A stretch of 64,000 bases of DNA, taken from a virus. Within the stretch, counting starts at the first letter, position 1; every line of letters starts with the position of its first letter. The stretch is from the IMG/VR virus record IMGVR_UViG_3300017971_000033; one strand, given 5' to 3'. A program made the position numbers and the translations under genes. Below, piece after piece: positions 18,547-64,000 of this stretch. The notes below the pieces were generated by a model. That model was not told where the DNA came from, did not search any database, and worked only from the letters and a program-made list of their open reading frames with translations.

Positions 18547-18634
18547 GGTATTACTCCTTTCGTTTGTCGGTAAAATCTCCTCCGACAAAAGCTATTTATT
18601 ATTCTTGTTGTTTTGTTTTTATTATTGCTTGCCT

Positions 18635-19293: not shown

Positions 19294-20028
19294 TTATGTT
19301 TCCTCCTCCTTGGTGTAGCGAGTCACCGCATTATCAAAATCCTGCGGCGTGTTTATTGCCCTTCCTGACGTTTTGCAAGATGTCAGCCGCGGACAATATG
19401 CGGTCATCCCGTTTTCAAGCACTCGCATTTGCTCCAAGCCTTCTTGCTTCTCCAGCTCCCTGTTTGTCAACATGGTGTAAGCATCGAGGAAGGTTGGATA
19501 GTAGGCATAGATCCCGCAATGGCGTTTGGCCGCTGGTAAACCAACGCGGGTAAAATAAAGCGCCCTGTCATCCTTGCTGGTTATTACCTTGACTATTCCG
19601 GGATCATCGATCTCCGAGGATGATTGAAATTCCTCGTGCATGCAGAACAATGTTCGGTGCCGGTTATGGACTAGACATTCTTTTGCATACTGGTAGATCT
19701 CATCTATCGCCAGCGGATCCACCTCGAACTTGTCGCCTTGGACATTGATGATGACTTCGCTTAGCGGCAGGTCTAACCGCTTAACAAGATCGGCAACCCG
19801 CTCAGTCCCGTTAGCAAGGTTCGCGTATGTCATAGCGGTCTCTGCGCCGAACTGCCGGCAGACCTCCTCGACCTCCGGGGCATCGGTAGCAATCACAATA
19901 CGGTTAGCCGAAGCGGCTTGAGCGGCTCGCTCATAGGTATGTTGAATGATTGGCTTGCCGCCGATAATCCGCAGCGGTTTGTTCGGTAGGCGGTAGGATG
20001 CCGCCCTTGCAGGAATTACTATGATCAT
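19294..20028 (-). CDS. kdsB: 3-deoxy-manno-octulosonate cytidylyltransferase (CMP-Kdo synthetase) homologue
   Basis: 'IIVIPARAASYRLPNKPL..IGGKPIIQHTYERA', 'RIVIATD', 'GTERVADLV', 'INVQGD', 'ALYFTR', 'GIYAYY' and 'LEQMRVLENG' align along E. coli KdsB as I remember it. Confidence 0.85.
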   Translation of the reverse strand: MIIVIPARAASYRLPNKPLRIIGGKPIIQHTYERAAQAASANRIVIATDAPEVEEVCRQFGAETAMTYANLANGTERVADLVKRLDLPLSEVIINVQGDKFEVDPLAIDEIYQYAKECLVHNRHRTLFCMHEEFQSSSEIDDPGIVKVITSKDDRALYFTRVGLPAAKRHCGIYAYYPTFLDAYTMLTNRELEKQEGLEQMRVLENGMTAYCPRLTSCKTSGRAINTPQDFDNAVTRYTKEEET

Positions 20029-38799: not shown

Positions 38800-38877
38800 C
38801 CATAGCAGTTTTTTGTTAAGGTCGCAACATACCGAGTGGCGGGGCCGCTCTTTCTGAACAACAGAAGGGGGCAGGTT

Positions 38878-46070: not shown

Positions 46071-46124
46071 GACTTCTTCACCGAAGTAGGGGATTGTTAA
46101 TGTTAAGCAACAGGAGTAAAGGTC

Positions 46125-48581: not shown

Positions 48582-48711
48582 CCGCGAGCCATGACCGCAC
48601 CAAGGCTCAAACAGTTTGCACGGCGTACTTCCTCTGCGCTGGTGAGCTGGTTTTCCGTGGGGTTTCCAGCGTGCAGAAATAACCCCTTATCACTTTTCGA
48701 GGAGGAACATT

Positions 48712-49086
48712 ATGGCTTCTGAACTTACCGATGACGAAGCGCAACACATTATCGAGCTAAAGGAACAAGCAGCAAGAGCTAGTGGGCGGCAACTTCGCCA
48801 TTTAAGGCGGGTTATCCGCAACAGGATTTTCAGGATTCGGCAAGGCCGGGATGGCTTTGATAACGGATTGAAGAAGTTTATTGAAGCGCAGCTTTCTCCG
48901 GACCAGTCGCTTGATACCTTTACATTCAATTGGGATATTGCGCCTAATGATCCGATGAAGGTTGTTTCCCCTTACGAGTGGACTGATTGCGGCGGTACGT
49001 TTGAAACGGTCATGGTCTTATGTCAAGACGGCATAACGAGACCGGAACGGCAATGTGATCCGACTGCGTTCACCAAGCAGGAGTAA
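48712..49086 (+). CDS. hypothetical protein
   Basis: GAGGAGGA lies before the ATG. 124 aa. Confidence 0.55.
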   Translation: MASELTDDEAQHIIELKEQAARASGRQLRHLRRVIRNRIFRIRQGRDGFDNGLKKFIEAQLSPDQSLDTFTFNWDIAPNDPMKVVSPYEWTDCGGTFETVMVLCQDGITRPERQCDPTAFTKQE

Positions 49087-49092
49087 ATCCTG

Positions 49093-50472: not shown

Positions 50473-50474
50473 CG

Positions 50475-51161
50475 ATGGGATTACAAGACGCAATAGCAAG
50501 AGAGAAGCAACTCCGTAGTGCGATGGAACACATCGACGGCTTCCGCGCCCGCCACGGATTGCCGCCTTTCGATTTTGAAGTCAAGCGCATTGCTGGCGGC
50601 GACTTCGAGGCTGCACCGATCATCGGCCCCGGACGGTATGACCCGGACGAGGAAACAGCACTTGATTGTTGTCCGTGGGATATGTCAGAAGCCGCAAAGG
50701 AATTAGCGAAGGAAATTGACAAGGATATTCTTGACAGTTTCATGGCCGACAGGGAAAGCGCGGAACTGTTCAATGAGCTGGCATCAGACCTCGAAACCGT
50801 GAACAAGTTAATCGAGGAAGGCGACAGAAGTGTTTATGCTCCGGACTTACTGCGCAAGGCCGCAGATACCATAGCCGACCGAGCGGCTGCAAGAGACTCG
50901 GATAAGGGCGGCAGATCGATGCACAAAGCCGTTGCCACCTTCAATGCCATGACTGGCCACAATCTCAGCATAGAGGATGGATGGCTTTTCATGGTTTACT
51001 TGAAGCACGCGCGGATGCGTGGCGGTCACTTCCACGGTGACGACTACGTTGATGGCGTGGGGTATGAAGCACTCATGGCAGAGGAAGCATACAGATCAAA
51101 GGGGCAGAGCAATGCTGGAGAACATAGCCGCTTATCTCAATCCGTTCGACCCGAAGAATGA
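50475..51161 (+). CDS. hypothetical protein with DUF6378-like C-terminal domain
   Basis: 'MHKAVATFNAMTGHNLSIEDGWLFMVYLKHARMRGG..HGDDYVDGVGYEAL'. The family recollection is tentative. Confidence 0.45.
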   Translation: MGLQDAIAREKQLRSAMEHIDGFRARHGLPPFDFEVKRIAGGDFEAAPIIGPGRYDPDEETALDCCPWDMSEAAKELAKEIDKDILDSFMADRESAELFNELASDLETVNKLIEEGDRSVYAPDLLRKAADTIADRAAARDSDKGGRSMHKAVATFNAMTGHNLSIEDGWLFMVYLKHARMRGGHFHGDDYVDGVGYEALMAEEAYRSKGQSNAGEHSRLSQSVRPEE

Positions 51162-51342
51162 CGCGGTACCTAATGCAGAAGATGTCTGGTATCTAGAGGT
51201 CGAGTTTGTACCGTCAGCGGAATATGAAAGCAAGTCACATATCCTTGCGCTGAAAGGCGACATGACGCGCGCGGAGATTGCGCGTGACATCCGGATCTTC
51301 GCCGATCAGATTGAACGGGACATCCCTGACATAGTTCAATAA
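51112..51342 (+). CDS. hypothetical protein
   Basis: ATG 51112 ('MLENIAAYLNPF'). Confidence 0.4.
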   Translation: MLENIAAYLNPFDPKNDAVPNAEDVWYLEVEFVPSAEYESKSHILALKGDMTRAEIARDIRIFADQIERDIPDIVQ

Positions 51343-52223
51343 TGGCGACCTTCTCTGACAGGGCTTTAACGGTAGCAACGCGCGGCGTCTTATCAGGCGT
51401 CGCGCTTACCATTGCGACCAATGGAATTCTGCAACTCCCGCAGGATGTCCCGGTTGTTGTCGAGCCTACTCCGCAACCGGTTGCCGCGGCGCCAGCGCGT
51501 GTCAGGGGTCCGCTTTCCTTCGAGTATTCCAACCAGTACCGGATCCAGTCAGAGATCAGGCTGGGGCTGGGGCTCGATGTCGAGGCCAGATATCTCCCTG
51601 TCCCTCTGGAAGAATACCGTGACACGGCAAACTTCTTCTGGAGTCTGGACCTCTCCGGGGAGTCTGGTGCAAGTCGGTACCAGTCGAGACAGTCGGACTA
51701 TACATGGGGAATTGACCTCTCCGGGGCTTCCCGAGCCGATTATCAAGGAATCCTGAATCCGGCCCCGCTCAAATGGGCGGTTGACCTCAGTGGGGCCTCA
51801 TACGGCTCACAGGCCACCAGAGGCCTTGTGCTTACCTCAGTTTCCCTCGGAATCTCCCCAGAAGGCCGCTCACGCGGTCTGGCGGCATCTCCGGGCTCGG
51901 TGGAATATCACCATATTGCCTCCCCGTGGGATCTTCGGATCCAGTCCCGGAGCTGGGCCGATTTGCTACAGGTGGAGGAGTACCGGTACCTGTCACACCT
52001 CCCTGTCAAGGCCGGTTTCCAGATAAACACCAGTCACCAGACAGTCGGCGCCAGTCAGGGCCAGTCACAAAAGTTTTACTGGAGAAATCGCCTTGACACG
52101 GGATTGCGCCTTGACACACCTTCATTCCACGAGCCAATCCCTGTAATTCCGCGGACGGATGACGAGGAGGTGTTGTTTGCGGTAATCCAGATCCTGCTCA
52201 GCGAGGATGATGACCTTGCCTGA
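51342..52223 (+). CDS. hypothetical protein with three W-x-(L/I/V)-DLSG-x-S repeats
   Basis: 'FWSLDLSGESGAS', 'TWGIDLSGASRAD', 'KWAVDLSGASYGS'. Confidence 0.55.
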   Translation: MATFSDRALTVATRGVLSGVALTIATNGILQLPQDVPVVVEPTPQPVAAAPARVRGPLSFEYSNQYRIQSEIRLGLGLDVEARYLPVPLEEYRDTANFFWSLDLSGESGASRYQSRQSDYTWGIDLSGASRADYQGILNPAPLKWAVDLSGASYGSQATRGLVLTSVSLGISPEGRSRGLAASPGSVEYHHIASPWDLRIQSRSWADLLQVEEYRYLSHLPVKAGFQINTSHQTVGASQGQSQKFYWRNRLDTGLRLDTPSFHEPIPVIPRTDDEEVLFAVIQILLSEDDDLA

Positions 52224-54468
52224 GAACATGACAACAATAATCAGGGATCTGCTAGTCAACAGCGACATCGATCTGCAACGAGTTGACGCCGCAACGCGTA
52301 AGGAAGTCACGGGGCTTTTGAATTCCTTGTCAAAGGAAATAAAAGACAAGCTGACCAAGTGGGACTTTGACGCAGCCGACACGCAGGTGTTCAATCGCAA
52401 GCTGAATCAGATTGTACGTGTGACCGCGCCGAACATTGAAAGAGCTTACCGCGTCATTGAAGATACCGTAGCGGCAGACCTTTCCGATGTCGCGCAGCTA
52501 TCGCAGGAGCAGGTTACTGATGCGGTCAATAGCGCGACCAACATTGAGCTTGTAAGCAATAAGGTTCACTTGTCAAAGCTAAGGGCGCTCGCGGGAAATT
52601 CCATGATAGAAGGCGCGCCGATCAATGAATGGTGGGGCAGGCAAACCGATGTATTCAAGCAGGAGTTTAAAGACCAAATCAGGCAAGGCATGCTGAATGG
52701 CGAAACTATCCCGGACATGATCCGCAGGGTACAAGGTAGCCGCGCCAACCGCTTTCAAGACGGCATCATTGCCCGCGCCGGTAAACGCGCGCACCGCCTT
52801 GTGAGAACCTCTGTGCTGACCGTTGCCAATCAAGCCCGCATGGAAACCTACAAAACCAATGCCAGAGTGATCAAAGGCGTTCAGTGGCTTTCCACGCTCG
52901 ACTCCCGCACGAGTGATATCTGCATGGGGCTTGACGGACAAGCGTGGACACTGGAAGGAAAGAAGATGACCGGCACAACCGTGTCATGGAGTGGCCCGCC
53001 TCCAGCGCACTGGAATTGCCGCAGCACGCTCATCCCAGTGGTCAAGACTTTCACCGAGCTGGCGAAAGAGAAAGGCATCAACAAGAAATTCACGAAGCTA
53101 GACCGCAAGCTACGGATCCGCGCCAGAGCCGCTATGGACGGCAAGCAGGCGCAGGCTATTACATACGAAGGCTGGCTGCGGAAACAATCGCAGGCGCGTC
53201 AGCAGGAGGTTTTAGGGATAACGAAGTGGCGCTTGTGGAGTGCCGGCAAGATTACCGTCCGGGATCTGATAGACCAATCCGGGAATCCACGCACGGCAAA
53301 GCAACTACTCGATGACTTTGGTGGTGGCACTATTAAGCCGCCGCCGATTATTAAGCCGCCACCGCCGCCACCGCCGCCAGTTATCAAGCCGCCGCCGCCG
53401 CCTAAGCCTAAGCCGAAGCCAAAGAAGGATCCTTCACCAGCGCCTAAGCCGACGCCTAAGCCGAAGCCAGCACCAGCACCTGCGCCAGCACCGACCGCGG
53501 CCAAGGTTGAGAAATACCGTACCAATACCATGACGGGCGAGGAGGTTGATGCGCGGAATTACAACAGGTATGCGGCAGTGGGCCGTCAGAAGATCGATTC
53601 AGCGTTTAAGGGCTTGCTATCGCAAGACGAGCTGAATGATTTGCGGCTTTCCGGCGATGATGTCCGCAAGCACGCTATCGGCAAGCAGATATGGGAGAAC
53701 CGCGTCGATGATGATGCGGCAATCAATATTTCCAAAACAATGTCAAAGAGCGCCGTGCCGCGCGACCTCGAGGATGTGAACTTCACCAATACCGAGTTAC
53801 TTAGCAAGCATCGGCTCAAGATCAAGAAAGCTATGCAGAAAATCCGCAAGGATCTACGCTCGCGCTGGCGTGACGAGGTTAAGTGGAAAAGGAACGGCAA
53901 GATGGTGACGACCACGCTGGAGGAAAAAACAAACGACTTTACCAGCCTCTTCAAGTACGGCGACAAGTCGGCTGTTGACAATGCCGGATCTATTCGCTGG
54001 GCGATTGAGGAAGCCTACACAATGGCTGGCGGGCAGATAGCCCCCGGAGCAATCGTCAAGATTATAGCGACAGGCCGCGCCTATGCTAACAAGTTCAAGC
54101 GTGTGCTGAATGTCGGCAGAAGGAAGAAATCAACCATCTTCCACGAGCTCGGCCACTTTATCGAGTTCAATGCCATTCGCGTCGAGAAGGCTGCGCATGA
54201 ATTCCTCGACTCCCGGAAAGCGATTAACTCGCAACGTGGTCTTGACAAGTTCTTCCCGAAGCACGGCTACCGCAACGACGAGTATGCTTACCCCTCGGAT
54301 GTCCTGCATGCCTACATGGGCAAGACTTACCCTGACGGCGCGACCGAAGTGATCTCTATGGGCTTTGAATCATTTGCCAGTGTGGATGGCATGATCGATC
54401 TGTTCTACAAAGACCGCGACTTGTTTGAGATGATCTTGGGAATACTTTACCGCAAACCCGGAGGATAG
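52207..54468 (+). CDS. MuF / SPP1 gp7-family minor head protein fused to a Pro-rich linker and an HExxH C-terminal domain
   Basis: 'VQWLSTLDSRTSDICMGLDG...PPAHWNCRSTLIPV' is the MuF core. The Pro/Lys linker is encoded at 53335-53497. 'TIFHELGHFIEF' (HELGH at 54142-54156). Confidence 0.8.
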   Translation: MMTLPENMTTIIRDLLVNSDIDLQRVDAATRKEVTGLLNSLSKEIKDKLTKWDFDAADTQVFNRKLNQIVRVTAPNIERAYRVIEDTVAADLSDVAQLSQEQVTDAVNSATNIELVSNKVHLSKLRALAGNSMIEGAPINEWWGRQTDVFKQEFKDQIRQGMLNGETIPDMIRRVQGSRANRFQDGIIARAGKRAHRLVRTSVLTVANQARMETYKTNARVIKGVQWLSTLDSRTSDICMGLDGQAWTLEGKKMTGTTVSWSGPPPAHWNCRSTLIPVVKTFTELAKEKGINKKFTKLDRKLRIRARAAMDGKQAQAITYEGWLRKQSQARQQEVLGITKWRLWSAGKITVRDLIDQSGNPRTAKQLLDDFGGGTIKPPPIIKPPPPPPPPVIKPPPPPKPKPKPKKDPSPAPKPTPKPKPAPAPAPAPTAAKVEKYRTNTMTGEEVDARNYNRYAAVGRQKIDSAFKGLLSQDELNDLRLSGDDVRKHAIGKQIWENRVDDDAAINISKTMSKSAVPRDLEDVNFTNTELLSKHRLKIKKAMQKIRKDLRSRWRDEVKWKRNGKMVTTTLEEKTNDFTSLFKYGDKSAVDNAGSIRWAIEEAYTMAGGQIAPGAIVKIIATGRAYANKFKRVLNVGRRKKSTIFHELGHFIEFNAIRVEKAAHEFLDSRKAINSQRGLDKFFPKHGYRNDEYAYPSDVLHAYMGKTYPDGATEVISMGFESFASVDGMIDLFYKDRDLFEMILGILYRKPGG

Positions 54469-54469
54469 G

Positions 54470-54769
54470 ATGATCGGAATCGAAGTAAGGAAAGGAAGGA
54501 ACCGCGCAATAGTCAGCGTCAACAAGCGATGGAATGACGCAGGAAAAATCCAGTTTGAAGGCGATGACCCTCTTGTCAAGGAACTCCGCGCTAGTGTACC
54601 TTTGCTGCGCGGGGCTTTTGGACATATCCTTGGCCGATACGCAGAGCCTGCTGACGTTTGGCATGCGTTAACAATGCAAGGGCCGTTTTATGGCTGGGAG
54701 CTGACCGTGGTAGAAGGGGCGATCGGGGAAAAACTCACCTATCCCGAAGAGCGCAATTCGGTAACCTAG
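54470..54769 (+). CDS. hypothetical protein (possible cognate/immunity partner of MuF C-terminal domain)
   Basis: 99-aa ORF starting 2 nt after the MuF stop. Confidence 0.5.
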   Translation: MIGIEVRKGRNRAIVSVNKRWNDAGKIQFEGDDPLVKELRASVPLLRGAFGHILGRYAEPADVWHALTMQGPFYGWELTVVEGAIGEKLTYPEERNSVT

Positions 54770-54781
54770 AGGAATACGACT

Positions 54782-55870
54782 ATGATGACAGAGCCAATGA
54801 TGGCGCCAATCCATGTGCGCCATATGTCGCTGATCCACGCGCAGCAATATGAACGCGGCCACACCAATCAGACGACCATGCAAACGGGCGGGCAAAAGAT
54901 TAAGTTTGTCAATCCGAACATCGACAACTACCCCGACAATCTGGATTTCTATGCCAAGCGCGTGGAAGAAGGCACTCCGATCTACAAAGCCGGGATGTTG
55001 CAGCCGAACACAACCGCTTATGTCATTGGATCCGGGCCGTCGCTAAAGGAAGAGGATTCGGTCAAGGAAATCCGCAAGGCTTCCAAGGCTGGCAACAAGG
55101 TGCTGTTTGCGTGCAAGCAAGCCATCAAATTCCTGCATGACCAAGGGATCAAGATGGAGTATGGCGTCAGCATGGATCCCGGGGCACATATTGCAAGACC
55201 GGAAAAGATCTATAAAGCTCCCGGCATGACGCACATCATTGCAAGCTCAAGTGATCCTCTGCTATACAAATACCTAAAGGCCGGGATGCCTTTCGCCGAT
55301 TGGTTAGGTACACTGACCGACCAAGAGGCGCAGCGAGTCCTTGAGGATGACTATGACTCTTGGAAAGCTGGTGAGTACGAACCCCCGGACGCTGGGGAGG
55401 ATGCCGCGGAAGTCATGATATTCCACTCAGCGACCGGTTATAAAAACGAAGTCGAGATGTATAACACCAGATTCCCGACTCATGACTGCATGGGCGGCGG
55501 GTATAACGTAGTCAACCGTGCCCTGTCAGCGGCGATCTTCATGGGGGCTGCTGATGCCGTGCTGGTAGGGACAGACTGCGGATGGCGAGAGGATTCCAGC
55601 TTCTATGTTGACGGGGTTGCGCAGCGCAAAGGCGTTGACATGACCGACAAAGGGCTTGTCGAGGGAACTGACGAGAATGGCAATCCACTGGAAAACACCG
55701 AAGGCGCAGGCGTATGGAATACCCGCCCCGACATGCTGGCGAGCGGAGTTGCGCTTGCAAAGCTGGCAAAAAGGAATCCGGGGAAGATCCACTTCTACGG
55801 CCACACGCTTCCCGCGTTACTGGAAAAGAAATCAATGGAATTTCTAGACAAGTGCGCTGAATTTGGTTAG
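54782..55870 (+). CDS. DUF115 / Maf-like (MptE-fold) putative glycosyltransferase
   Basis: 'AYVIGSGPSLKE', 'VLFACKQAIKFLHDQGIKMEYGVSMD', 'GGGYNVVNRALSAAIFMGAADAVLVGTDCGW'. Confidence 0.5.
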   Translation: MMTEPMMAPIHVRHMSLIHAQQYERGHTNQTTMQTGGQKIKFVNPNIDNYPDNLDFYAKRVEEGTPIYKAGMLQPNTTAYVIGSGPSLKEEDSVKEIRKASKAGNKVLFACKQAIKFLHDQGIKMEYGVSMDPGAHIARPEKIYKAPGMTHIIASSSDPLLYKYLKAGMPFADWLGTLTDQEAQRVLEDDYDSWKAGEYEPPDAGEDAAEVMIFHSATGYKNEVEMYNTRFPTHDCMGGGYNVVNRALSAAIFMGAADAVLVGTDCGWREDSSFYVDGVAQRKGVDMTDKGLVEGTDENGNPLENTEGAGVWNTRPDMLASGVALAKLAKRNPGKIHFYGHTLPALLEKKSMEFLDKCAEFG

Positions 55871-55880
55871 CGTCAAGGTC

Positions 55881-55910
55881 TAGTCATGTAGGGACGTTTG
55901 TATTTATAAT
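55881..55910 (+). promoter_or_regulatory. possible sigma-70 promoter upstream of scaffold gene (TAGTCA-18-TATAAT)
   Basis: Perfect -10 at 55905-55910; weak -35 at 55881-55886. Confidence 0.3.
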
Positions 55911-55936
55911 ACTTCACCACTTGAGGAGTTTGGATT

Positions 55937-56752
55937 ATGGCACTAAAGACAATCATCAAAAACCTGACTGACGTTGCCGAACCGCTACGCGATCTTTACA
56001 CCAAGCAAGGTGATTCTTATGTTCTTGACATCGATGACAAGGACTACAAGGCCAAGCTAGATGAGTTCCGCAACAACAATATCGACCTCCGTAAGAAGGT
56101 GGAGTCACTGACCGAAGCGGAGAAGGAAGCCGCGGCGCTGAAAGAGCAAATGGGGCAGTACAAGGATATTGACCCGGAGCGGGCTCGTGAAGCGATTGAG
56201 AAGATGTCGGCGATCGAGGAACAGAAACTTATTGAGGCCGGCCGCATCGACGAAGTTGTCGAAGAGCGGATTGGCCGCAGGCTTGAGAGGCTCAAGTCTG
56301 ATTACGATGGAAGAATCCACAAGCTGGAATCTGAACTTGAAAACTCGCAGGGGTCCGCTGGCAAATACCGCGAGCGGCTCGAGGATGTGTTAATCAACTC
56401 TTCCCTGCAAAACGCTGTCATGGAAGTGGGCACCCCGAAGAAAGGCGCATTGGTTGATATTATTAACCGCGGCAAATCGGTGTGGACGCTGGACGATGAC
56501 AGCAATCCCTTGCCCAAAGCTGACGGCGAAGTCATCTACGGAAAGGACGGTAAACAGCCTATCACAATGGAGGAGTGGGCTCGTTCTCTCTTGATGGATT
56601 CTCCGTTTTTATTTGAGGGCAGTGCTGGAGGCGGTGCCAACGGCAATCTCGGTGTAGACTCCGAAAGGGGTGTTATCAGCAGAAGCAATCAGGACGCGCT
56701 GAATGACAACATCGAGGCAATCGCCAAAGGTGATTACACCATAGGCGAATAG
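55937..56752 (+). CDS. scaffolding protein
   Basis: 271 aa, charged coiled-coil ('KAKLDEFRNNNIDLRKKVESLTEAEKEAAALKEQ'). Lies directly upstream of the coat gene. Confidence 0.6.
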   Translation: MALKTIIKNLTDVAEPLRDLYTKQGDSYVLDIDDKDYKAKLDEFRNNNIDLRKKVESLTEAEKEAAALKEQMGQYKDIDPERAREAIEKMSAIEEQKLIEAGRIDEVVEERIGRRLERLKSDYDGRIHKLESELENSQGSAGKYRERLEDVLINSSLQNAVMEVGTPKKGALVDIINRGKSVWTLDDDSNPLPKADGEVIYGKDGKQPITMEEWARSLLMDSPFLFEGSAGGGANGNLGVDSERGVISRSNQDALNDNIEAIAKGDYTIGE

Positions 56753-56813
56753 TAGTAAATGTCCCGGGGGGACAAGAGACCTATTTTCTTTTAACGCAAT
56801 TGGAGACTGACCA

Positions 56814-57956
56814 ATGTCGAATACTCTTGACAACATTATGGCCAAAATCCTCGCGCGTGGTCTGCTTGCCCTTCGTGAGCAGGCTTCCATGCCGCGACTG
56901 GTGAATGGTGACTACTCACGCGAAGCTGCCGAAAAGGGTGACACGATTGATGTGCCGATTCCTTCCGGTATTACCGCCTCGGATGTTACTCCTGCGCCTG
57001 TTTATTCCAGCGCTTCTAACTCCACTCCGGGCAAGGTTCAGATTCCTCTGGACAACTGGAAAAAGACCAACTTCTATCTGACCGACAAGGACATGGTAGA
57101 AATCGACCGCAACGAGCACTTCATTCCCATGCAAATGAGCGAGGCCATTCGTGCTCTTGCCAATGCCGTGAATGAGGACATCTTTGCGGAGTATAAGGGC
57201 GTCTACGGCTATACCGGCACCGCTGGTACTACGCCTTTCGCCTCTACCGTTGTGGCAGCTACAAACGCTCGCAAGGTCCTGCACCAGCAGCTTGCCCCGC
57301 GCGACAATCGCCGCGGTGTGCTGAGCTACGATGCGGAAGCCAACGCACTCGCGCTGGCACCGTTCGCTGATGCGGAAAAGACCGGCAGCACCGGCGTCAA
57401 GATCGAAGGTGAGATCGGCCGCAAGTACGGCATTGACTGGTATGCGGATGATGCCGTGCCGGTTCATACCGCTGGTGGCGCGACTGCTTCTGCTATTGTG
57501 GTCGGTAGCGCGGTTGCCGCTGGTACCTCCTCGATCGATATGACTGGTGGCAACAACACAACTTTGCTTCCGGGTGACATCTTCACCATTGCAGGTGATA
57601 CGCAGACTTACGTGGTCAATGCCACTGCCGTCATCGTTTCCACCGGCAATGTCGCTGTCAGCATTACGCCTAACCTCAAGGCTGATGCTTCCAGTGAAGC
57701 CGTAACGGTTGTGGGTGATCATACGGTCAATCTGGCTTTCCACCGTGACGCCTTTGCTTTTGCAAACCGTCCGCTGATGCAGAGCACTGCCGACATGCAG
57801 CTCGGTAGCCGCATCATGGCAATGACTGATCCGCAGACCGGTATCAGCCTGCGCCTTGAGGTGTCCCGCCAGTACAAGCAGGTCACTTGGGAACTGGATA
57901 TCCTGTGGGGTGCCAAGCTGGTCCGTCCGGAACTGGCAACCCGTATTGCAGGTTAA
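56814..57956 (+). CDS. major capsid protein (P22 coat / gp5-like family)
   Basis: N-terminus 'ILARGLLALREQASMPRLVNGDYSREAAEKGDTIDVPIP' is typical of the PF11651-type coat. Preceded by the scaffold gene and followed by a strong terminator. Confidence 0.7.
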   Translation: MSNTLDNIMAKILARGLLALREQASMPRLVNGDYSREAAEKGDTIDVPIPSGITASDVTPAPVYSSASNSTPGKVQIPLDNWKKTNFYLTDKDMVEIDRNEHFIPMQMSEAIRALANAVNEDIFAEYKGVYGYTGTAGTTPFASTVVAATNARKVLHQQLAPRDNRRGVLSYDAEANALALAPFADAEKTGSTGVKIEGEIGRKYGIDWYADDAVPVHTAGGATASAIVVGSAVAAGTSSIDMTGGNNTTLLPGDIFTIAGDTQTYVVNATAVIVSTGNVAVSITPNLKADASSEAVTVVGDHTVNLAFHRDAFAFANRPLMQSTADMQLGSRIMAMTDPQTGISLRLEVSRQYKQVTWELDILWGAKLVRPELATRIAG

Positions 57957-57991
57957 TCTCTAACCGGGTAGGCTCAAACGCGAGCCATTGC

Positions 57992-58028
57992 AGCCCCGCT
58001 CCTTCTCCCGAGGGCGCGGGGTTTTTTT
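57992..58028 (+). terminator. intrinsic terminator after major capsid gene
   Basis: CCCCGC (57994-99) ... GCGGGG (58016-21) followed by TTTTTTT (58022-28). Confidence 0.7.
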
Positions 58029-58048
58029 ATAACTACGAGGAGTAAAGT

Positions 58049-58453
58049 ATGAAACTTTCTACAGTCAAAATCCGCAACAAGAAAACCGGCGCAACGACCG
58101 TGATCAATGAAGTCGATTGGGCGCATGATCTTGGTCGTGGTCAGTGGCGCGGATGGGAACGCTATGGCGAGATGCACACGGGCCTTGTAAAAGACAAGCT
58201 CGTGCTGTCAGACAATATGGATACCGCCGACAAAACGCTGCACAAAGCCGTACTGGATTCGATACCGCAAGGGGTTGACATCGAAGAGCCGTCAGGGCAG
58301 AGTCTCTCCAGCGACGAGAAATCTGCTCAACAAGAGCCTGCGTTCATTATTAATGAACAAGCGGAAACGGTGAACAAACCGCGTGGTGTCACAGCAGACA
58401 GTGACGCAAAGAAACCACGCCGCCGCCGCCGTCGCAAAACCGAGGAAAGCTAA
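58049..58453 (+). CDS. hypothetical protein with poly-Arg C-terminus
   Basis: GAGGAG lies before the ATG. Ends 'KKPRRRRRRKTEES'. Confidence 0.55.
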   Translation: MKLSTVKIRNKKTGATTVINEVDWAHDLGRGQWRGWERYGEMHTGLVKDKLVLSDNMDTADKTLHKAVLDSIPQGVDIEEPSGQSLSSDEKSAQQEPAFIINEQAETVNKPRGVTADSDAKKPRRRRRRKTEES

Positions 58454-58522
58454 CCTATCAGGGGAAGTATCAATACCTATCAATCCTCACCAGATTGATA
58501 GTTCACCATAGAGGAGCACAGC

Positions 58523-59326
58523 ATGATTATTACTTCCTTCTCGCAGAAGGGCTATCATGAATACGGGAAGCGGTTTATAGAAGGCTTCCTAAAGCACTGG
58601 AAGGATCAAACACTCACGGTCTACTATGAGCATGGCATCCCGTCAGCCGCGCCGAAGGATGACCGCATTATCTACAAAGACCTTTACTCATTCGATGATT
58701 TCAAGCAGATCGAGGCTGTGCTGAATAACAGTGATCCGATTTACTCCGGGAAACATATCAACCCGCAGAATCCGCAGCAGCAGGTCTACAACTTCCGATA
58801 TGACGCTAATCGGTTCTACCGAAAAGTGTTCGCTATCTGCGACGCATGCCACTCGCAAAACGGAATCGTTGCGTGGGTTGATGCGGACGTAGTATTCAAG
58901 GCCGATATCCCGCCGAACTTCCTGCAAGGCATATTTGCCGTAAAGGAAGGTGAGCCAGAATTCTATATGGCCGTGCTTGAGCGCAAGTGGCTCTACAGCG
59001 AAAACGGTTTTGTCGGCTTCAATACCAACCATCCCGCAAACAATTTCTTTATGCCGCTTTGGTATAACACCTATGCGGAAGGCGCGTTCAAATACCTCGG
59101 AGAATTCCATGATTGTTACTCAATGGACTTTATCCGCACGGCGATGGCTATCCCGTACAAGAACCTGAATCCGAATGAGCAAAGCAACCATCCCTTTCAG
59201 GAGTCAATACTCGGGGAATACATGGAGCACCTCAAAGGCCCGGAGCGGAAAGCGCAAGGCGGTCTGCTAGACAAGGATCCGGGAGTAGAAAAACCGGAAA
59301 CACAAAGGCCGAAGGTGTTGTCATGA
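58523..59326 (+). CDS. putative nucleotide-sugar glycosyltransferase (DxD type)
   Basis: 'GIVAWVDADVVFKADIP' is a DxD motif in a GT-A-like context. Confidence 0.4.
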   Translation: MIITSFSQKGYHEYGKRFIEGFLKHWKDQTLTVYYEHGIPSAAPKDDRIIYKDLYSFDDFKQIEAVLNNSDPIYSGKHINPQNPQQQVYNFRYDANRFYRKVFAICDACHSQNGIVAWVDADVVFKADIPPNFLQGIFAVKEGEPEFYMAVLERKWLYSENGFVGFNTNHPANNFFMPLWYNTYAEGAFKYLGEFHDCYSMDFIRTAMAIPYKNLNPNEQSNHPFQESILGEYMEHLKGPERKAQGGLLDKDPGVEKPETQRPKVLS

Positions 59327-60357
59327 AAAAGACCGCGCTTGTCACCGGCGCCTCGGGGCAGGATGCCGCTTACCTAATCGAGCTATTACTGCAAAAGGGT
59401 TACGAGGTCTATGCAGGCATGCGCAGGACGGCCAGCATGAACCTCTGGCGGCTCAAGGAGCTTAGTCTTGTCACGGAGTCAGAGTATGAGGAACACAATC
59501 CAGCACAAGGCCTGACCTTCCTTAATTTCGATGTGACATGCTCCGCGCAGGTCAACAATGTGATTGATGAGGGACAATTCGACGAGGTATATAACCTTGC
59601 AGCCATGTCCTTTGTCCCGGAGTCATTCGCTTCGCCGGTTGCCACGTTTCAAATAAACGCCGTTGGCGCGCTGAACATCATGGCCGCGATCAACCAGTTC
59701 TCGCCATCCACGAGACTCTACCAAGCTAGCACCTCGGAGATGTTCGGCCTTGTCAATGTCGAGTCACAGGGAGAGGATACGCCATTCCACCCGCGCAGCC
59801 CCTATGCGGTTGCGAAGGTAGCCGCGCACTATGCCGTGCAGAATTACCGCGAAGCATACGAGAATTTCTTTTGCTCCGGGATTCTGTTTAACCATGAATC
59901 ACCGCTCCGGGGTGAAGAGTTTGTAACGCGGAAAATCACCAAGGCTGTTGCGCGTATCGTTGCCGGCAAGCAGCAGTTCCTTGAACTCGGGAACCTCGAT
60001 GCCTACCGCGATTGGGGCCATGCTCGTGATTATGTTTATGCCATGTACCTCATGCTGCAACAGGACGAGCCGGAGGACTTTGTGATTGCCACGGGCGAAA
60101 AGCATAGGGTTTGGGATGTCGTCCACACGGCCTTCACCTATGTCGGCATCGATGTCTGGGCCGAACACCTGATGAAAAACCCGGATCTGATGCGGCCGTC
60201 AGAAGTTCCGCTGTTACTCGGTAATCCAGCAAAGGCGCAGGACAAACTTGGTTGGAAGCGAGCTTATGATTTCGAGACCATGATTCGTGAGATGGTTGAC
60301 TACGACTTATCGAGAGAGGGCGTGGATCCGATCATATACCACGCGCAACTCGCATGA
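59323..60357 (+). CDS. gmd: GDP-mannose 4,6-dehydratase
   Basis: 'ALVTGASGQDAAYLIELLLQKGYEV', 'YNLAAMSFV', 'YQASTSEMFG', 'PRSPYAVAKVAAHY', 'ILFNHESPLRGEEFVTRKIT', 'LGNLDAYRDWGHARDYV'. Confidence 0.9.
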   Translation: MKKTALVTGASGQDAAYLIELLLQKGYEVYAGMRRTASMNLWRLKELSLVTESEYEEHNPAQGLTFLNFDVTCSAQVNNVIDEGQFDEVYNLAAMSFVPESFASPVATFQINAVGALNIMAAINQFSPSTRLYQASTSEMFGLVNVESQGEDTPFHPRSPYAVAKVAAHYAVQNYREAYENFFCSGILFNHESPLRGEEFVTRKITKAVARIVAGKQQFLELGNLDAYRDWGHARDYVYAMYLMLQQDEPEDFVIATGEKHRVWDVVHTAFTYVGIDVWAEHLMKNPDLMRPSEVPLLLGNPAKAQDKLGWKRAYDFETMIREMVDYDLSREGVDPIIYHAQLA

Positions 60358-60605
60358 ATATAGAACTCGATTTTATAAACAAGATCCTCTACATCAAGGA
60401 AGGTATGCGGCTTGCTGAAATCTTTTTGGAGGTTAAAGACCTTTATGCCGATGACCCGGATGTAGAGTTCCCGTTCAAGACCCTTGAGCAACTTGAGGAC
60501 GGGACCGAAGTCTTTTATCTTCACCCCGACTGGAAGTGTTTACCATTCACCAAGAAAGGAGATCCGCTATATGTTGCCCCAGACCGGAGAAAGACAAGTA
60601 GCTGA
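60354..60605 (+). CDS. hypothetical protein
   Basis: 83-aa ORF, ATGA-coupled to gmd. Confidence 0.45.
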   Translation: MNIELDFINKILYIKEGMRLAEIFLEVKDLYADDPDVEFPFKTLEQLEDGTEVFYLHPDWKCLPFTKKGDPLYVAPDRRKTSS

Positions 60606-61236
60606 AACGCTGGACGGTATCAAGCCGAACCACAAGCATAGATATAACTTCGCTATAAACCAGATCAAGGCATTGTTCGGTGACAACCCCAGCATCAACA
60701 TTGTTGACTGCGCCTGCGGTATTGGATACGGCACCTATATGCTCGCCACCGCTTTCCCGGAAGCGCGTGTAATCGGCATCGATATCCATCAGCCTGCTGT
60801 AGATGCTGCTACCCGTGCTTATGGGGAAGGCAATAATAGATTCCAGCAAGCAGACCTCAGCAAGCGCGAAGAGTTTGAGGCTGCGTTGGTGGATGGCTTT
60901 GACGGGGAAAAGCAGAAGGTTGATGTAATCGTCAGCATAGAAACCATCGAGCATGTCAAGGATGATGAGGCATTAATCCAAATGTACGGCGAACATGCTT
61001 CTGTGCTGGTTGGTTCGGTGCCTAACGAGGAAGTGGTACCGTTCAACCGTGACACGCATCCCTTCCACTTTCGCCATTACACAAAAGACGAGTTCACTGA
61101 ACTCTTGTCAAAGTCTGAATACACGGTCAAGCAATGGGCTACTCAGTACGAGAAGATCCCGGGCCATGTCTATGATGCTGATGACGGCATGGGTTTTGTG
61201 GTAACAGCCATTCAAGGCGAAGCTGTCAACGCATAG
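60571..61236 (+). CDS. class I SAM-dependent methyltransferase
   Basis: AAGGAG lies before ATG 60571. Motif I is 'IVDCACGIGYGTY'; also 'VIVSIETIEHV'. Confidence 0.7.
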   Translation: MLPQTGERQVAETLDGIKPNHKHRYNFAINQIKALFGDNPSINIVDCACGIGYGTYMLATAFPEARVIGIDIHQPAVDAATRAYGEGNNRFQQADLSKREEFEAALVDGFDGEKQKVDVIVSIETIEHVKDDEALIQMYGEHASVLVGSVPNEEVVPFNRDTHPFHFRHYTKDEFTELLSKSEYTVKQWATQYEKIPGHVYDADDGMGFVVTAIQGEAVNA

Positions 61237-61272
61237 CAACTTCTGGAAAACACCACGCAGGAGGAAGCAGCC

Positions 61273-62148
61273 ATGAAGGTAGGAATATTTACTCCGGGGG
61301 ATAACAAGGTTCACCAAAAGGCGCTCAAGGCTTTTGCGGAAGGCGTGGCAAAGGTCAACGAAGATGTCACCATCTACTCGGTTGATAACTACACGCCGGT
61401 CGATGTCGCCATTGTTTTCGGTATCGGCAAGCAGGGAGTCCCGTGTTCCTATGCTCGCGGCAACGTTATACGCCAACAGCGCCTTGCAGGGAAAGATGTC
61501 ATTGTCATCGAGAAGGGCTTTGTCAAGCGCGATGAGTATTACATGGTCGGTCTGAACGGACTGAACAACCATGCTGAATTCCATAACCTTGCGTGTCCGG
61601 CCGATCGGTGGGAACTCCTCGATGTGAACCTGCATCCCCGGAGAACCGAAGGTCAGCACATTATTGTTTGCGGACAGGTCCCGTCAGACGCCAGCGTGCA
61701 AGACATTGACATTATCCAGTGGTGCCAAAAGACCTGCACTGACCTGAGATCCATGACTGACAAGCCGGTTGTATTCCGTGCACATCCGCTTGCCCGCAGC
61801 AGGACACCTGACATGCTAGGGGTAATCAACTCCCGCAATGACACGCTGATGGATGATTTATACGGAGCTTATGCCTGTATTACATATAATTCCAACGCGG
61901 CTGTTGAGGCGGTCATCGCAGGAGTGCCGGCCTTTTCTTTTAACGCGGGGAGTATGGCGCACAACGTTACAAGCCACGATCTGCGAATGATCAACAACCC
62001 CTTCTTCCCGTCAGAGTCGGCCCGTAAGCAATGGGCTTGCGATCTTGCTTATACGCAATGGACTCTTGATGAGATGCGTACCGGTAGACCTTACCTGCGG
62101 CTGATGTCTAGCGGCTTCTCTTTCAGCGAGGTTCAGAATGGAGATTAA
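61273..62148 (+). CDS. Capsule_synth (KpsS/KpsC-type, beta-Kdo transferase-like) protein
   Basis: 'VIVIEKGFVKRDEYY' (E-x-GF-x-R), 'IIVCGQVPSDASV' (Q-x3-D), 'VVFRAHPLA' (HP), 'ITYNSNAAVEAVIAGVPAFSF'. This matches the architecture as I recall it for KpsS/KpsC. Confidence 0.45.
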   Translation: MKVGIFTPGDNKVHQKALKAFAEGVAKVNEDVTIYSVDNYTPVDVAIVFGIGKQGVPCSYARGNVIRQQRLAGKDVIVIEKGFVKRDEYYMVGLNGLNNHAEFHNLACPADRWELLDVNLHPRRTEGQHIIVCGQVPSDASVQDIDIIQWCQKTCTDLRSMTDKPVVFRAHPLARSRTPDMLGVINSRNDTLMDDLYGAYACITYNSNAAVEAVIAGVPAFSFNAGSMAHNVTSHDLRMINNPFFPSESARKQWACDLAYTQWTLDEMRTGRPYLRLMSSGFSFSEVQNGD

Positions 62149-62431
62149 CACCATGCAAGCAGGCATAGCTCTTGTCATAACGATTGTCGGCGGTACCGTA
62201 GCGACAACCAGTTACTTTGTAACAAAGGAAAGCCACGAGAAAGAGATGGTCGTAATGGAACAGCAATCAGGCGACATCTACCGCGGCATCCGTATTGAGC
62301 AGCTTGAGGATAGGGTTTACATCCTCGAAGAAGCAAGGAAGGGACGCGCATTGACTACTGACGAAAAGATCCGGCTAGACGCTGCGCAGGAATCACTGAA
62401 AGAACTCTACAAACAGGAGGAAAGACGATGA
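62138..62431 (+). CDS. membrane-anchored coiled-coil protein
   Basis: N-terminal TM 'AGIALVITIVGGTVATTSYFV'. The start may be ATG 62153. Confidence 0.5.
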   Translation: MEINTMQAGIALVITIVGGTVATTSYFVTKESHEKEMVVMEQQSGDIYRGIRIEQLEDRVYILEEARKGRALTTDEKIRLDAAQESLKELYKQEERR

Positions 62432-62739
62432 GCGAAGAGCAGCAAATGATTATGGCGCATGATATGACGATTGCCCCGAAATTCCAGATTGACACGGGTA
62501 TGCACGTGCTTGCCATGAATACCATCATCAGCCATGTGGCTGTGCCGCCTGATTTCAATGCGGCATCGAAAGACGCGCCCAAGCCGCGCTTTATAAAGCA
62601 GCAGCTTTTTAACCTGACGCTTCCGACAGAGATGGATCCGCGTGAACTGGCAACCGCCTTGCGTAATTACGCCGACAATCTGGACAAGTATGTTGACGAT
62701 AATCCACAAGCTGAGGAGTCCTCCGATGCGGTGGGATAA
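62428..62739 (+). CDS. hypothetical protein
   Basis: 103-aa ORF. Confidence 0.45.
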   Translation: MSEEQQMIMAHDMTIAPKFQIDTGMHVLAMNTIISHVAVPPDFNAASKDAPKPRFIKQQLFNLTLPTEMDPRELATALRNYADNLDKYVDDNPQAEESSDAVG

Positions 62740-63754
62740 TCCGATCTATTGCAAGTGGCTTGAGTTGCCCGATGTGGCATCGCTCTATCCAGAGGAAAAG
62801 CAAAACCGACTTGATGATGACTATGACCCTTGGATCCTCGATGTCGCGGTTACGCGCGGCGATGAGCACTCCTTCATGGAGGAGATCCGGTTTGCTATGC
62901 ACGGCCTCGATGATCCGGCTTTGTTCGACAGGATCCGAAAGCAGTTCCGGGTATATCGCAACAACATGGTCAGACCGCCGCACAGCAACCATGAGATGAT
63001 CTTGACACGGGAGCCGGCCAACTCGGTTTTCCAGTCGATCTATAACAATGGGATCTGGATGGGGCAGGTTGACACAAGCAAGATCAATGTCGGCAAGCTG
63101 GTAGACAAGTGGCTGGCAAAGCCTGATTGGCAACCGCCTCCGGGAACCTATGACCGCGGCGAGATGCTTGGAGCTGAATACATCAAGACGCTACAAGCCG
63201 AACTCACCAAGCGCGGAATACTGGAAGCGGCAAGCGCCTATAAGGGGAAGCCGCTAAAAGTCGCAGGAGCTTATCTGCATATCAGCACGCCGACCGATCA
63301 GCACTACCGGCAATTCGGCGGCTATGACGCACCAGTCAATCCGTGGATCAATACACACATCGACCCCAAGGAGGATTGCATGAAGGCGATCATCTACCTT
63401 GAGGGCATCGAAATTAACAACGGCCCTTTTCACTTCATCGAAGGAAGCCATCGCTTTGTTATACCAGCGCACAAGGAAATACTTGGCAGGGCGTTATGCA
63501 CCGGCAACTACATGCAGACCCCGGAAGAACGCGCGCCGATTCTTGCCATGCCGAAACCGTTGCGGGTCTCGTATAACTTTGGCCGCTTTGTCGAAGAGAA
63601 CTCAGTCTTGAGCCAAGAGATGCTTTTATTCAGACGGACACTTTTGTCCGCAGCAGAGACAAACATCGCAGTGTTCGATGCAGGCGCAGGCATCCATCAA
63701 GGCGGGGTTGTCGAGAAAGGGCGCCGCGTCAACCTGCAAGTGCTAATGAAATAA
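62726..63754 (+). CDS. Fe(II)/2-oxoglutarate dioxygenase, PhyH-like
   Basis: In-frame ATG 62726. 'NTHIDPKED' (H-x-D) and 'NNGPFHFIEGSHRF'. Confidence 0.55.
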   Translation: MRWDNPIYCKWLELPDVASLYPEEKQNRLDDDYDPWILDVAVTRGDEHSFMEEIRFAMHGLDDPALFDRIRKQFRVYRNNMVRPPHSNHEMILTREPANSVFQSIYNNGIWMGQVDTSKINVGKLVDKWLAKPDWQPPPGTYDRGEMLGAEYIKTLQAELTKRGILEAASAYKGKPLKVAGAYLHISTPTDQHYRQFGGYDAPVNPWINTHIDPKEDCMKAIIYLEGIEINNGPFHFIEGSHRFVIPAHKEILGRALCTGNYMQTPEERAPILAMPKPLRVSYNFGRFVEENSVLSQEMLLFRRTLLSAAETNIAVFDAGAGIHQGGVVEKGRRVNLQVLMK

Positions 63755-63791
63755 AACGCCGATAATTTTAATCACACAGAGGAGCATTAAA

Positions 63792-64000
63792 GTGACCTTG
63801 AATCTATCTGACTCCGTATTGCAGCGACGGGTATTCAATCAAAATATCTACAACCTTCACCGGCAGCACTATATGCTCGGGCAAACCGCGAAGTTCATTG
63901 ACAAGAATTCCATTGTTCTCGATATCGGCGCGGCGGTTGGTATGTATACGCACTTCTGGGCCGGTCTTGCCAAGCATGTATATTCCTTCGAGGCTGTGCC
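63792..64000 (+). CDS. FkbM-family methyltransferase, 3' end outside window
   Basis: AGAGGAG lies 7 nt before GTG 63792. The frame is open to the window edge. 'SIVLDIGAAVGMYTHFWAGLAKHVYSFEAV' matches the Methyltransf_21 N-terminal motif. Confidence 0.55.
   Translation, partial: MTLNLSDSVLQRRVFNQNIYNLHRQHYMLGQTAKFIDKNSIVLDIGAAVGMYTHFWAGLAKHVYSFEAV

Follow-up and report, generated by a model that had tools for sequence, protein, structure and literature searches.

The virus record IMGVR_UViG_3300017971_000033 raises the question of what glycan-biosynthesis genes are doing among the genes that build a phage head. In the stretch of 64,000 nucleotides analysed here (the window), a gene for a Maf/MptE-like transferase lies between the MuF and scaffold genes and a series of further sugar-active enzymes follows the coat gene (Table 1); together we call these genes the island. 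From our point of view the most plausible answer, to which we give a probability of about 0.55, is that, in the cytoplasm, the enzymes of the island attach to virion proteins a methylated glycan in which 3-deoxy-manno-octulosonate (Kdo) and a 6-deoxyhexose occur, the virion as target being what we infer. This target is favoured because the genes sit in the head operon, are retained across a clade and recur in part at the same position in an unrelated phage, and also because there is no export or membrane enzyme and no prophage copy, while Maf provides a precedent for action on a self-assembling protein. The initial annotation had preferred virion glycosylation too, and the clade-wide retention in the head module, the recurrence in an unrelated phage and an enzyme set that is soluble throughout strengthen that preference, short of proving it.

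The phage is a member of a clade of uncultured siphophages, a tailed phage of 75 kb whose island belongs to the head-assembly module. Its GDP-mannose 4,6-dehydratase (GMD) is identical residue for residue on two metagenomic contigs (L003 and L004; 74,668 and 74,686 bp). The two contigs are circularly permuted relative to one another, which makes a complete genome probable, and as they are separate assemblies, one from a JGI sample and one from an ENA sample, the same phage was sampled twice. No near-identical DNA for positions 54000-64000 is present among 50,697 GenBank phage records, and the phage is uncultured. Phages with a related coat in GenBank infect, among others, Vibrio, E. coli, Klebsiella, Rhizobium, Dinoroseobacter and Synechococcus, and the Gram-negative host implied by the initial annotation is an assumption.

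From 37366 to the end of the window all long open reading frames (ORFs) lie on the plus strand, in the order terminase, portal, an 11-kb block, MuF, a 99-aa ORF, MptE-like gene, scaffold and coat. Every gene that the initial annotation had named is found where it was placed, on the plus strand and with its family call backed; this includes the succession of a DxD glycosyltransferase (GT), GMD, an S-adenosylmethionine (SAM)-dependent methyltransferase, a KpsC-like protein, a PhyH-like dioxygenase and an FkbM methyltransferase behind the coat-gene terminator. The island had further been described as running off the window edge, and on the source contig it does continue for 2.36 kb, with the rest of the FkbM gene, a 38-aa transmembrane peptide, a 208-aa sulfotransferase-like protein, a 124-aa protein with a twin-arginine (Tat) signal and a 244-aa GT8 enzyme, before it stops at the head-tail adaptor gene (L003:17024, window-equivalent 66346). 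There the adaptor Ad1 is followed by Hc1, Neck1, two tail terminators and the tail tube. The 8.4 kb between the coat stop and the adaptor start are occupied by the island in their entirety, with the MptE-like gene as an outlier before the scaffold. Whether this is a glycan system at all depended on profile hidden Markov model (HMM) and structure searches finding GT and sugar-nucleotide families other than GMD. They returned Maf-like, GT-A, beta-Kdo-transferase-like and GT8 transferases in addition to GMD, two methyltransferases, PhyH and sulfotransferase-like proteins, and a KdsB elsewhere in the window.

Six of the enzymes (Maf/MptE-like, GT-A with DxD motif, GMD, SAM-dependent methyltransferase, KpsC/WbbB-like and GT8) form a core that is kept in fixed order around scaffold and coat. 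About 20 distinct contigs, in which the MptE-like protein has 40-57% identity, share the arrangement MuF - MptE - scaffold - coat - small gene - GT-A - GMD - methyltransferase - KpsC-like - variable slot - GT8 - Ad1, the exceptions being one contig from which GMD is absent and two in which a 182-aa unassigned ORF replaces the methyltransferase. Other members have additional O-methyltransferases or homing endonucleases in the variable slot, where GIY-YIG genes occur as well, and the largest tailoring set is that of the present phage. In L007, a close relative on an 86-kb contig, HNH genes are inserted in the cassette, the Pfam match of the 671-aa GMD (L007:14786-16801) is split in two, probably by an intein, and MuF (L007:7850-9361) contains Hint_2/intein domains.

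A coat-centred survey yielded 53 loci with both flanks readable, 15 of which had the MptE-like gene together with the post-coat cassette and 38 neither, without a single discordant case. In the cassette-free relatives, which include Vibrio phage MAR10, only 270-620 bp separate coat and adaptor. All 21 cassette-bearing loci fall into one clade of the coat tree, where coat identity to this phage goes down to 55% and no locus with both flanks readable lacks the cassette. The cassette is a clade-wide trait and, since the tree shows a single clade, goes back to one acquisition that was kept.

Maf enzymes act in the cytoplasm, where they O-glycosylate flagellin with CMP-activated ulosonic acids. The presence of a Maf/DUF115-like transferase between MuF and scaffold, as proposed by the initial annotation, is borne out by PF01973 (Table 1), which is also matched by all 69 homologues of the protein, each of them metagenomic and many on contigs of 50-88 kb. 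Against the PDB the family profile finds Maf 5MU5 best (1.4e-5; the match spans Maf residues 261-440 only) and the archaeal MptE 8SD5 second (1.3e-3). The AlphaFold2 (AF2) model, with a mean predicted local distance difference test (pLDDT) value of 86.6, has the sialyltransferase-like fold of the Maf central domain, and Foldseek relates it to Maf 5MU5 (4.7e-8), an MptE HPPK (5e-5) and the human sialyltransferase ST6GALNAC2 (7.6e-4). By tblastn, the protein has no match in the GenBank phage records, and a pattern scan of 185,579 bacterial and archaeal genomes revealed no relative of the family, so that no prophage copies were found. We regard it as a candidate initiating protein glycosyltransferase, by analogy with Maf, with which it shares the fold and the best profile and structure match and which likewise acts on a protein that later polymerises. 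Unlike flagellin Maf, it is about half as long and consists of the central domain only, the three-domain architecture of about 600 aa being absent; its subfamily occurs only on phage-like metagenomic contigs, without flagellin, pseudaminic or legionaminic acid genes, and the Pfam matches of window and island likewise contain no flagellin, pilin or NeuB/Pse genes and none for CMP-nonulosonic acid.

The Maf likeness could also be taken more literally, in that the enzyme might modify a protein outside the virion, such as flagellin, pilin or a phage non-structural protein, which could block receptors to competing phages. Characterised Maf enzymes do glycosylate flagellin, 5MU5 is the best match in sequence and structure alike, and the enzymes are soluble, all of which would suit such a function. 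We nevertheless consider it improbable, as no gene for flagellin, pilin or a nonulosonic-acid synthase comes with the cassette, the protein is confined to the central domain of Maf (362 aa compared to 632-666 aa), late expression would presumably leave little time to renew appendages, and the position in the head module would be left unexplained.

Behind the coat, the 267-aa protein has no match in Pfam, NCBIfam or PHROG, and a PDB profile search gave nothing useful. Its AF2 model, built on a 31-sequence alignment, resembles XXYLT1 (3.9e-7) as well as LARGE1, the GT6 enzymes alpha3GalT/GTA/GTB and glycogenin (range 4e-7 to 7e-6), with a Foldseek probability of 1.0 to GT8 and GT6 enzymes at template modelling (TM) scores of about 0.4-0.56. 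In the D120-x-D122 motif of the family, D122 is invariant (31/31) and D120 is conserved in at least 90% of the sequences, both being invariant in a set of 16. The protein hence has a GT-A fold with a metal-binding DxD motif, with no CAZy family assignable. The more distal GT8 enzyme has no PDB sequence match, yet all members of its family (11/11) match PF01501 (best 9.3e-6) and have an invariant D78-C-D80. Judged by its sequence, the product of 59323..60357, the gene next to that of the 267-aa protein, is a member of the GMD family, with GMD enzymes as its eleven best PDB matches (top 1RPN, 4.3e-101); with the equivalog model TIGR01472 it scores 373 bits, under the cutoff of 415, which does not certify substrate equivalence. 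The 221-aa methyltransferase is a core gene that always lies beside the KpsC-like gene, a pair also seen in other phages and in Planctomycetota genomes, and its PDB search returned only a generic rRNA methyltransferase match, with no hint of O- versus C-methylation.

Among the accessory tailoring enzymes, the 342-aa protein has no Pfam match itself, but 27 of 32 sampled members among its 473 homologues match PF05721 PhyH (best 1.4e-9). Its family profile finds the PhyH-type oxygenases 4XC9/4XCB (1.7e-4), and H211, D213, H324 and R334 are invariant in the family, which corresponds to the HxD...H triad and the 2-oxoglutarate-binding Arg. The full FkbM protein on the source contig matches PF05050 (1.5e-16) and phrog_8156 (1.8e-26), and the motifs HIPKTGG and FVRHP of the 208-aa protein are what we take to be typical of the binding site for 3'-phosphoadenosine-5'-phosphosulfate.

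Sugars are also placed on modified bases of phage DNA as a protection against restriction, as in glycosylated 5-hydroxymethylpyrimidines, and the island could be imagined to serve such a DNA hypermodification. Some GT-A enzymes of DNA-modifying phages resemble WaaJ/WaaO-type, GT8-like transferases (bioRxiv 10.1101/2023.12.21.572611), the island includes a 2-oxoglutarate dioxygenase, and an orphan C5 cytosine methylase (35330-36355; PF00145, 2.7e-42; PPCSNFS and ENV motifs) is located just upstream of the terminase region. That methylase is, however, 22 kb away from the island, the dioxygenase is of the PhyH type, accessory and missing from most cassette loci, and the genes lie in the head module instead of the replication module. 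The reported pathways cluster with a TET/JBP-type oxygenase or a thymidylate synthase, neither of which was detected. We further know of no Maf-like or KpsC-like enzyme and of no use of CMP-Kdo in DNA modification, which counts against this explanation as well, and we consider it very improbable.

The PDB matches of the 291-aa protein profile are KpsC 6MGD (2.4e-3) and WbbB 5FA0/8CSx (3.7e-3 to 1.2e-2) only, and neither Pfam (Capsule_synth) nor NCBIfam has a match. All of the 13 sequences compared have Q135, D139, H171 and P172, which coincide in the alignment with the QxxxD and HP motifs of KpsC/WbbB, reportedly the motif definition for beta-Kdo transferases (Ovchinnikova 2016; Doyle 2019). 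A C-terminal NS..G..A..G motif can also be aligned between the families. The protein is only a probable distant member of the beta-Kdo transferase families, resembling KpsC/KpsS (GT107) and WbbB (GT99) in its conserved motifs and its association with CMP-Kdo supply. As to differences, the similarity reaches only E about 3e-3, there are no kps export genes and the protein is a single domain of 291 aa, and the acceptor is probably not lyso-phosphatidylglycerol or the terminus of an O-chain.

KdsB makes CMP-Kdo, the donor of KpsC, KpsS and WbbB. A scan of the remaining window found one cytidylyltransferase, a KdsB that is encoded among non-structural genes 35 kb from the island and whose best 13 PDB matches are all KdsB (3DUV/1VH3 at 7e-42, 3OAM at 9e-41), with NeuA-type enzymes reaching only 2.6e-7. 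We think that it represents a distal part of the system which would supply the activated donor to the KpsC/WbbB-like transferase. Its closest IMG/VR homologue (41% identity) resides on the 86-kb contig of the nearest cassette-bearing relative, and as a pattern-based scan found a copy on the contig of this relative only, KdsB was rejected as a member of the conserved core and treated as accessory. Phage KdsB is rare (7 of the 50,697 phage records, two of which look bacterial, with lpxK-kdsB), and the association of the KpsC-like family with CMP-Kdo supply is seen in this phage, its nearest relative and the paralogues on L201 described below. In cyanophage S-SCSM2R, moreover, a GT8 homologue (1e-48) lies 1.4 kb from KdsB/KdsA. 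The methylated 6-deoxyhexoses which the initial annotation had deduced are hence plausible but incomplete as a description, since no 4-reductase is encoded and the Kdo component, KdsB together with the KpsC-like enzyme, had been missed.

Parts of the module recur in genomes outside the clade. One of these is that of an unrelated siphophage of the HK97 type (TerL, portal, S78 protease, PF05065 capsid), where the genes for a methyltransferase fusion and a KpsC-like homologue (HMM 1e-63) take up the place between capsid and connector genes. A podovirus has GT-A, methyltransferase and KpsC-like genes and one for a TibC-like protein glycosyltransferase just before its terminase, and in a third phage, which has DnaE and ClpB, an MptE-like::GT8 fusion (hhalign E 6.6e-5), a KpsC-like gene and a GT-A homologue are adjacent. 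The contig L201 (JGI 3300066022 Ga0610007_09071, 41.9 kb), the glycan locus of which possibly belongs to a large virus, contains three KpsC-like paralogues among genes for KdsA, KdsB, SIS, NeuB, Hydrolase_3, a sulfotransferase and FkbM. Planctomycetota genomes (L192-L199; L196 is the chromosome of Pirellulaceae bacterium SH449, CP197409.1 6620298-6637170) encode KpsC-like homologues of 38-46% identity with methyltransferase and GT8-like neighbours, and may represent the donor lineage of these genes or a clue to the host. The four transferase families travel together and are repeatedly tied to Kdo supply. On L201 there are also GT8-like and GT-A-like homologues, a Sulfotransfer_2, two CTP_transf_3, GMD-like epimerases and a dCMP deaminase.

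No enzyme of the island has a membrane segment, and KdsB, read separately, has none either, which is why we regard the chemistry as cytoplasmic. No transporter family is among the Pfam matches of window or island, and no kps or O-antigen locus with an ATP-binding cassette (ABC) exporter was found among them. The small membrane proteins of the island are the 38-aa peptide and the 97-aa protein at 62138-62431, which the initial annotation had recognised as a membrane-anchored coiled-coil protein and in which one hydrophobic segment (residues 10-28; Kyte-Doolittle maximum over 19 residues, 1.83) precedes a charged helical tail. The 124-aa Tat-signal protein has a weak homologue at the same place in L009.

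Assuming that virion proteins are the target, the pathway could proceed as follows. KdsB would raise the pool of CMP-Kdo, which is short-lived, and GMD would convert host GDP-mannose into GDP-4-keto-6-deoxymannose, a product that might be reduced by the GMD itself, if bifunctional as in PBCV-1, or by a host enzyme, or else be used after methylation. The Maf-like enzyme would start the glycan on Ser/Thr of a virion protein as Maf does on flagellin, the KpsC-like, GT-A and GT8 enzymes would lengthen it, and two or three methyltransferases, the dioxygenase and the sulfotransferase-like protein would decorate it. The coat terminator, which probably attenuates transcription into the enzyme genes, would end the abundant coat and scaffold transcripts, while the fraction that reads through would give catalytic amounts of enzyme; some read-through should be needed anyway, because the connector and tail genes follow further along this strand. 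The likeliest acceptor would be the coat or another head protein made at the same time, and an altered particle surface could benefit the phage by masking the particle, stabilising it or making it adhere less to debris and non-host surfaces. In a more specific form, which we put forward tentatively, the phages of this clade would O-glycosylate their own capsid in the cytoplasm with a glycan started or extended by Kdo, using a reduced Maf-type and a KpsC-type enzyme, each dependent on CMP-activated sugars, that were re-targeted from flagellin and lipid and are fed by KdsB and GMD. That HK97-type phages captured the methyltransferase and KpsC-like pair independently and at the same place of the genome forms part of this proposal and may be entertained with similar reserve.

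Several points weigh against a virion target. The evidence for the acceptor is genome position and as such circumstantial. Compared to cassette-free relatives, the coat of the cassette clade shows no insertion, extension, Ser/Thr-rich stretch or obvious sequon, and the four clade-specific Ser/Thr positions (T145, S232, T271, S293) are a weak lead that shared ancestry could explain. The co-occurrence of MptE-like gene and cassette (15/0/0/38; Fisher 1.6e-13) was rejected as independent evidence, as the coat tree shows a single clade and acquisition and the loci are hence not statistically independent. A pattern-based scan that may miss divergent copies detected no KdsB on the remaining long contigs with the cassette, the phage encodes neither a 4-reductase nor an epimerase that would act on the GMD product, and the MptE-like N-terminus of the HK97-type methyltransferase fusion is faint (hhalign probability 3%). 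The sequence similarity of the 291-aa protein to KpsC/WbbB is weak (E about 3e-3), and the known enzymes of these families act on lipid or polysaccharide acceptors, not on proteins. The Tat-signal protein is a misfit with a purely cytoplasmic pathway, and together with the two small membrane proteins it points towards the envelope.

These latter points lead to the explanation that the island remodels the host envelope, namely that a lipopolysaccharide (LPS) core or O-chain, or a Kdo capsule linker of the KpsC/KpsS type, is built at the cytoplasmic face of the inner membrane and displayed by host export, which would provide superinfection exclusion or stop progeny virions from binding again to infected cells and debris. 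In cyanophages, such genes are usually interpreted as modifying the host surface (PMC12801897). The trio of methyltransferase, KpsC-like and GT8 genes is also found in Planctomycetota chromosomes. In addition, KdsB is an enzyme of the LPS pathway, GT8 (PF01501) includes LPS-core transferases, and KpsC and WbbB, the sole solved relatives of the 291-aa protein, use lipid-linked acceptors. On the other hand, the genes follow the coat within the late head operon instead of occupying a module boundary or the vicinity of lysogeny genes, are kept across the clade unlike typical morons, and recur in part between capsid and connector genes of an unrelated phage. There is also no prophage copy in the scanned genomes, and neither a flippase, ABC exporter, polymerase or ligase nor a membrane enzyme of the Gtr or Oac type was found. 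Taken together, we regard envelope remodelling as rather unlikely, while it deserves more weight than the explanations by DNA modification or by modification of a non-virion protein. The same observations set the island apart from seroconversion modules of the GtrABC or O-acetyltransferase type, which temperate phages encode as integral-membrane enzymes close to the attachment site, as it has no membrane enzyme, no integrase was found among the Pfam matches of the window and no prophage copies were found in the scanned genomes.

To our knowledge, the only viruses for which glycosylation of the particle by enzymes of their own has been established are giant viruses of algae and amoebae and, from 2023 on, mycobacteriophages, in which antibody recognition is altered by it. 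In mycobacteriophages it is subunits of the capsid and the tail tube that bear the glycans (Freeman et al. 2023, Cell Host Microbe; cited in PMC12619734 and PMC11256854). Soluble phage GTs, in some phages with methyltransferases, are encoded beside the capsid gene, an adjacency that is found here too. Unlike the present case, the hosts are Actinobacteria, and the enzymes as described include no Maf-like, KpsC-like, GMD or KdsB protein. The glycans are located at C-termini, whereas the C-terminus of the coat is the same here as in cassette-free relatives. In chloroviruses, virus-encoded GMD, GTs and methyltransferases build the capsid glycans, and the GMD of PBCV-1 is bifunctional and produces GDP-D-rhamnose without a separate reductase (PMC5408694). 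The island resembles PBCV-1 in its virus-encoded GMD, cytoplasmic GTs and methyltransferase, which in PBCV-1 equip the major capsid protein with methylated glycans containing 6-deoxyhexose independently of the secretory machinery of the host. PBCV-1 differs as a eukaryotic giant virus with N-linked glycans, scattered genes and no Kdo, Maf-like or KpsC-like component. By analogy, the system would function like the capsid glycosylation of mycobacteriophages and chloroviruses but without the distinguishing enzymes reported for those. Large cyanophages such as S-SCSM2R (kdsA/kdsB; PMC12801897) have in common with the present phage the rare phage KdsB and the GT8 homologue beside KdsB/KdsA; there, these are auxiliary metabolic genes of 200-kb myoviruses that are read as host-surface modifiers, compared to a head module in a 75-kb siphovirus here. 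In the literature searched on capsid glycosylation of phages with Gram-negative hosts, phage Maf-like proteins and phage KdsB we found no description of this system, and the Acinetobacter 'RNA and sugars' paper, considered as a precedent, was set aside as irrelevant, because it deals with host lipooligosaccharide in a cystovirus envelope.

If these phages indeed O-glycosylate their capsid with Kdo, no virus would before have been known to carry a Kdo glycan linked to protein, and capsid glycosylation would for the first time be seen beyond giant viruses and actinobacteriophages. If virion glycosylation as such holds true, self-glycosylation of capsids would be commoner among tailed phages than thought. 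Maf-like, beta-Kdo-transferase-like and KdsB proteins would then be enzyme families not previously tied to virions. As a compact, soluble and cytoplasmic system it may also work in E. coli, where it could serve to decorate a self-assembling protein shell with unusual glycans of Kdo and deoxyhexose in methylated or sulfated form. For annotation it would mean that sugar genes of marine and sediment phages should not all be taken as modifiers of the host cell surface.

Table 1. Position and basis of assignment of the genes and signals discussed; L003 coordinates refer to the source contig.
Feature	Position	Strand	Length (aa)	Basis or remark
KdsB, CMP-Kdo synthetase (3-deoxy-manno-octulosonate cytidylyltransferase)	19294..20028	-	244	PF02348 CTP_transf_3, 1.1e-38
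Large terminase	37366-38799	+		
Portal	38836-40365	+		
MuF fusion	52207-54468	+	753	PF04233
ORF	between MuF and MptE-like gene	+	99	
Maf/MptE-like (DUF115)	54782..55870	+	362	PF01973, 3.9e-16, 59.7 bits (cutoff 34.6)
Scaffold	55937-56752	+		phrog_206
Coat, P22-type	56814-57956	+		phrog_283
Intrinsic terminator	57995-58029	+		stem CCCCGC/GCGGGG, then TTTTTTT
Small post-coat protein	58049..58453	+	134	conserved 45-aa N-terminal domain, acidic disordered tail
GT-A fold DxD glycosyltransferase, retaining-type fold	58523..59326	+	267	AF2 model, pLDDT 93, predicted TM score (pTM) 0.90
GMD	59323..60357	+	344	PF16363, 1.8e-113, full length
ORF	60354..60605	+	83	called on source contig; no family match, not conserved in relatives
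Class I SAM-dependent methyltransferase	60571..61236	+	221	Methyltransf_12/25/23/31/11, 3e-11 to 1e-8
KpsC/KpsS/WbbB-like (beta-Kdo glycosyltransferase-like)	61273..62148	+	291	profile against PDB
Accessory protein	62138..62431	+	97	N-terminal hydrophobic segment, charged helical tail; weak homologue in L007
Accessory ORF	62428..62739	+	103	called on source contig; no family match
PhyH-family Fe(II)/2-oxoglutarate dioxygenase, accessory	62726..63754	+	342	homologue matches
FkbM methyltransferase	63792..64000 in window, ends at window-equivalent 64529; L003:14470-15204	+	245	
Sulfotransferase-like protein	beyond window		208	weak family matches, HIPKTGG and FVRHP motifs
Tat-signal protein	L003:15932-16306 (window-equivalent 65254-65628)		124	twin-arginine signal, start MKRREFFKLFGKAAGAVGLGA
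GT8 glycosyltransferase	beyond window, before head-tail adaptor		244	PF01501, 24.3 bits, equal to cutoff

Among the neighbouring genes, the one for the 134-aa protein follows the coat in almost all cassette loci (it was not detected in L019 or L012). The protein has no family match in Pfam, PHROG or NCBIfam searches and aligns loosely with the small post-coat gene product of the cassette-free MAR10 and MW202657. It was for this reason dropped as a member of the cassette core and, judged from that alignment, is probably an ordinary head-module protein and not a cassette enzyme, with the possible role of a cassette substrate.

In the MuF fusion, a linker rich in Pro and Lys connects the MuF domain (residues 152-276) to a C-terminal domain in which an HELGH (HExxH) motif resembles that of metalloproteases, and in relatives MuF is fused to much larger extensions, in ORFs of up to about 2,500 aa. 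Between portal and MuF (41066-52223, plus strand) lie 11 kb of ORFs of 667, 171, 475, 205, 160, 818, 124, 459, 228 and 293 aa, which have no Pfam or PHROG match apart from DUF6378 in the 228-aa ORF (50475-51161). The 818-aa and 459-aa proteins are Ser/Thr/Ala-rich, and L007 has a single 73-aa gene in place of the whole block. At the other end of the window (63-12468), the genes for the distal tail belong to the type found in gene transfer agents (DUF2460, Phage_BR0599, NlpC/P60, Rcc01698_C, Phage-tail_3, phiJL001 Gp84_N), and the Pfam matches of the first 41 kb include a GH108 and PG_binding_3 endolysin. Near kdsB, the minus strand also encodes a 113-aa Gly/Tyr repeat protein (GYGYGY...; 16224-16565) and a 238-aa protein (17872-18588) that combines a single hydrophobic segment with a long tail rich in Gly, Asp and Asn.

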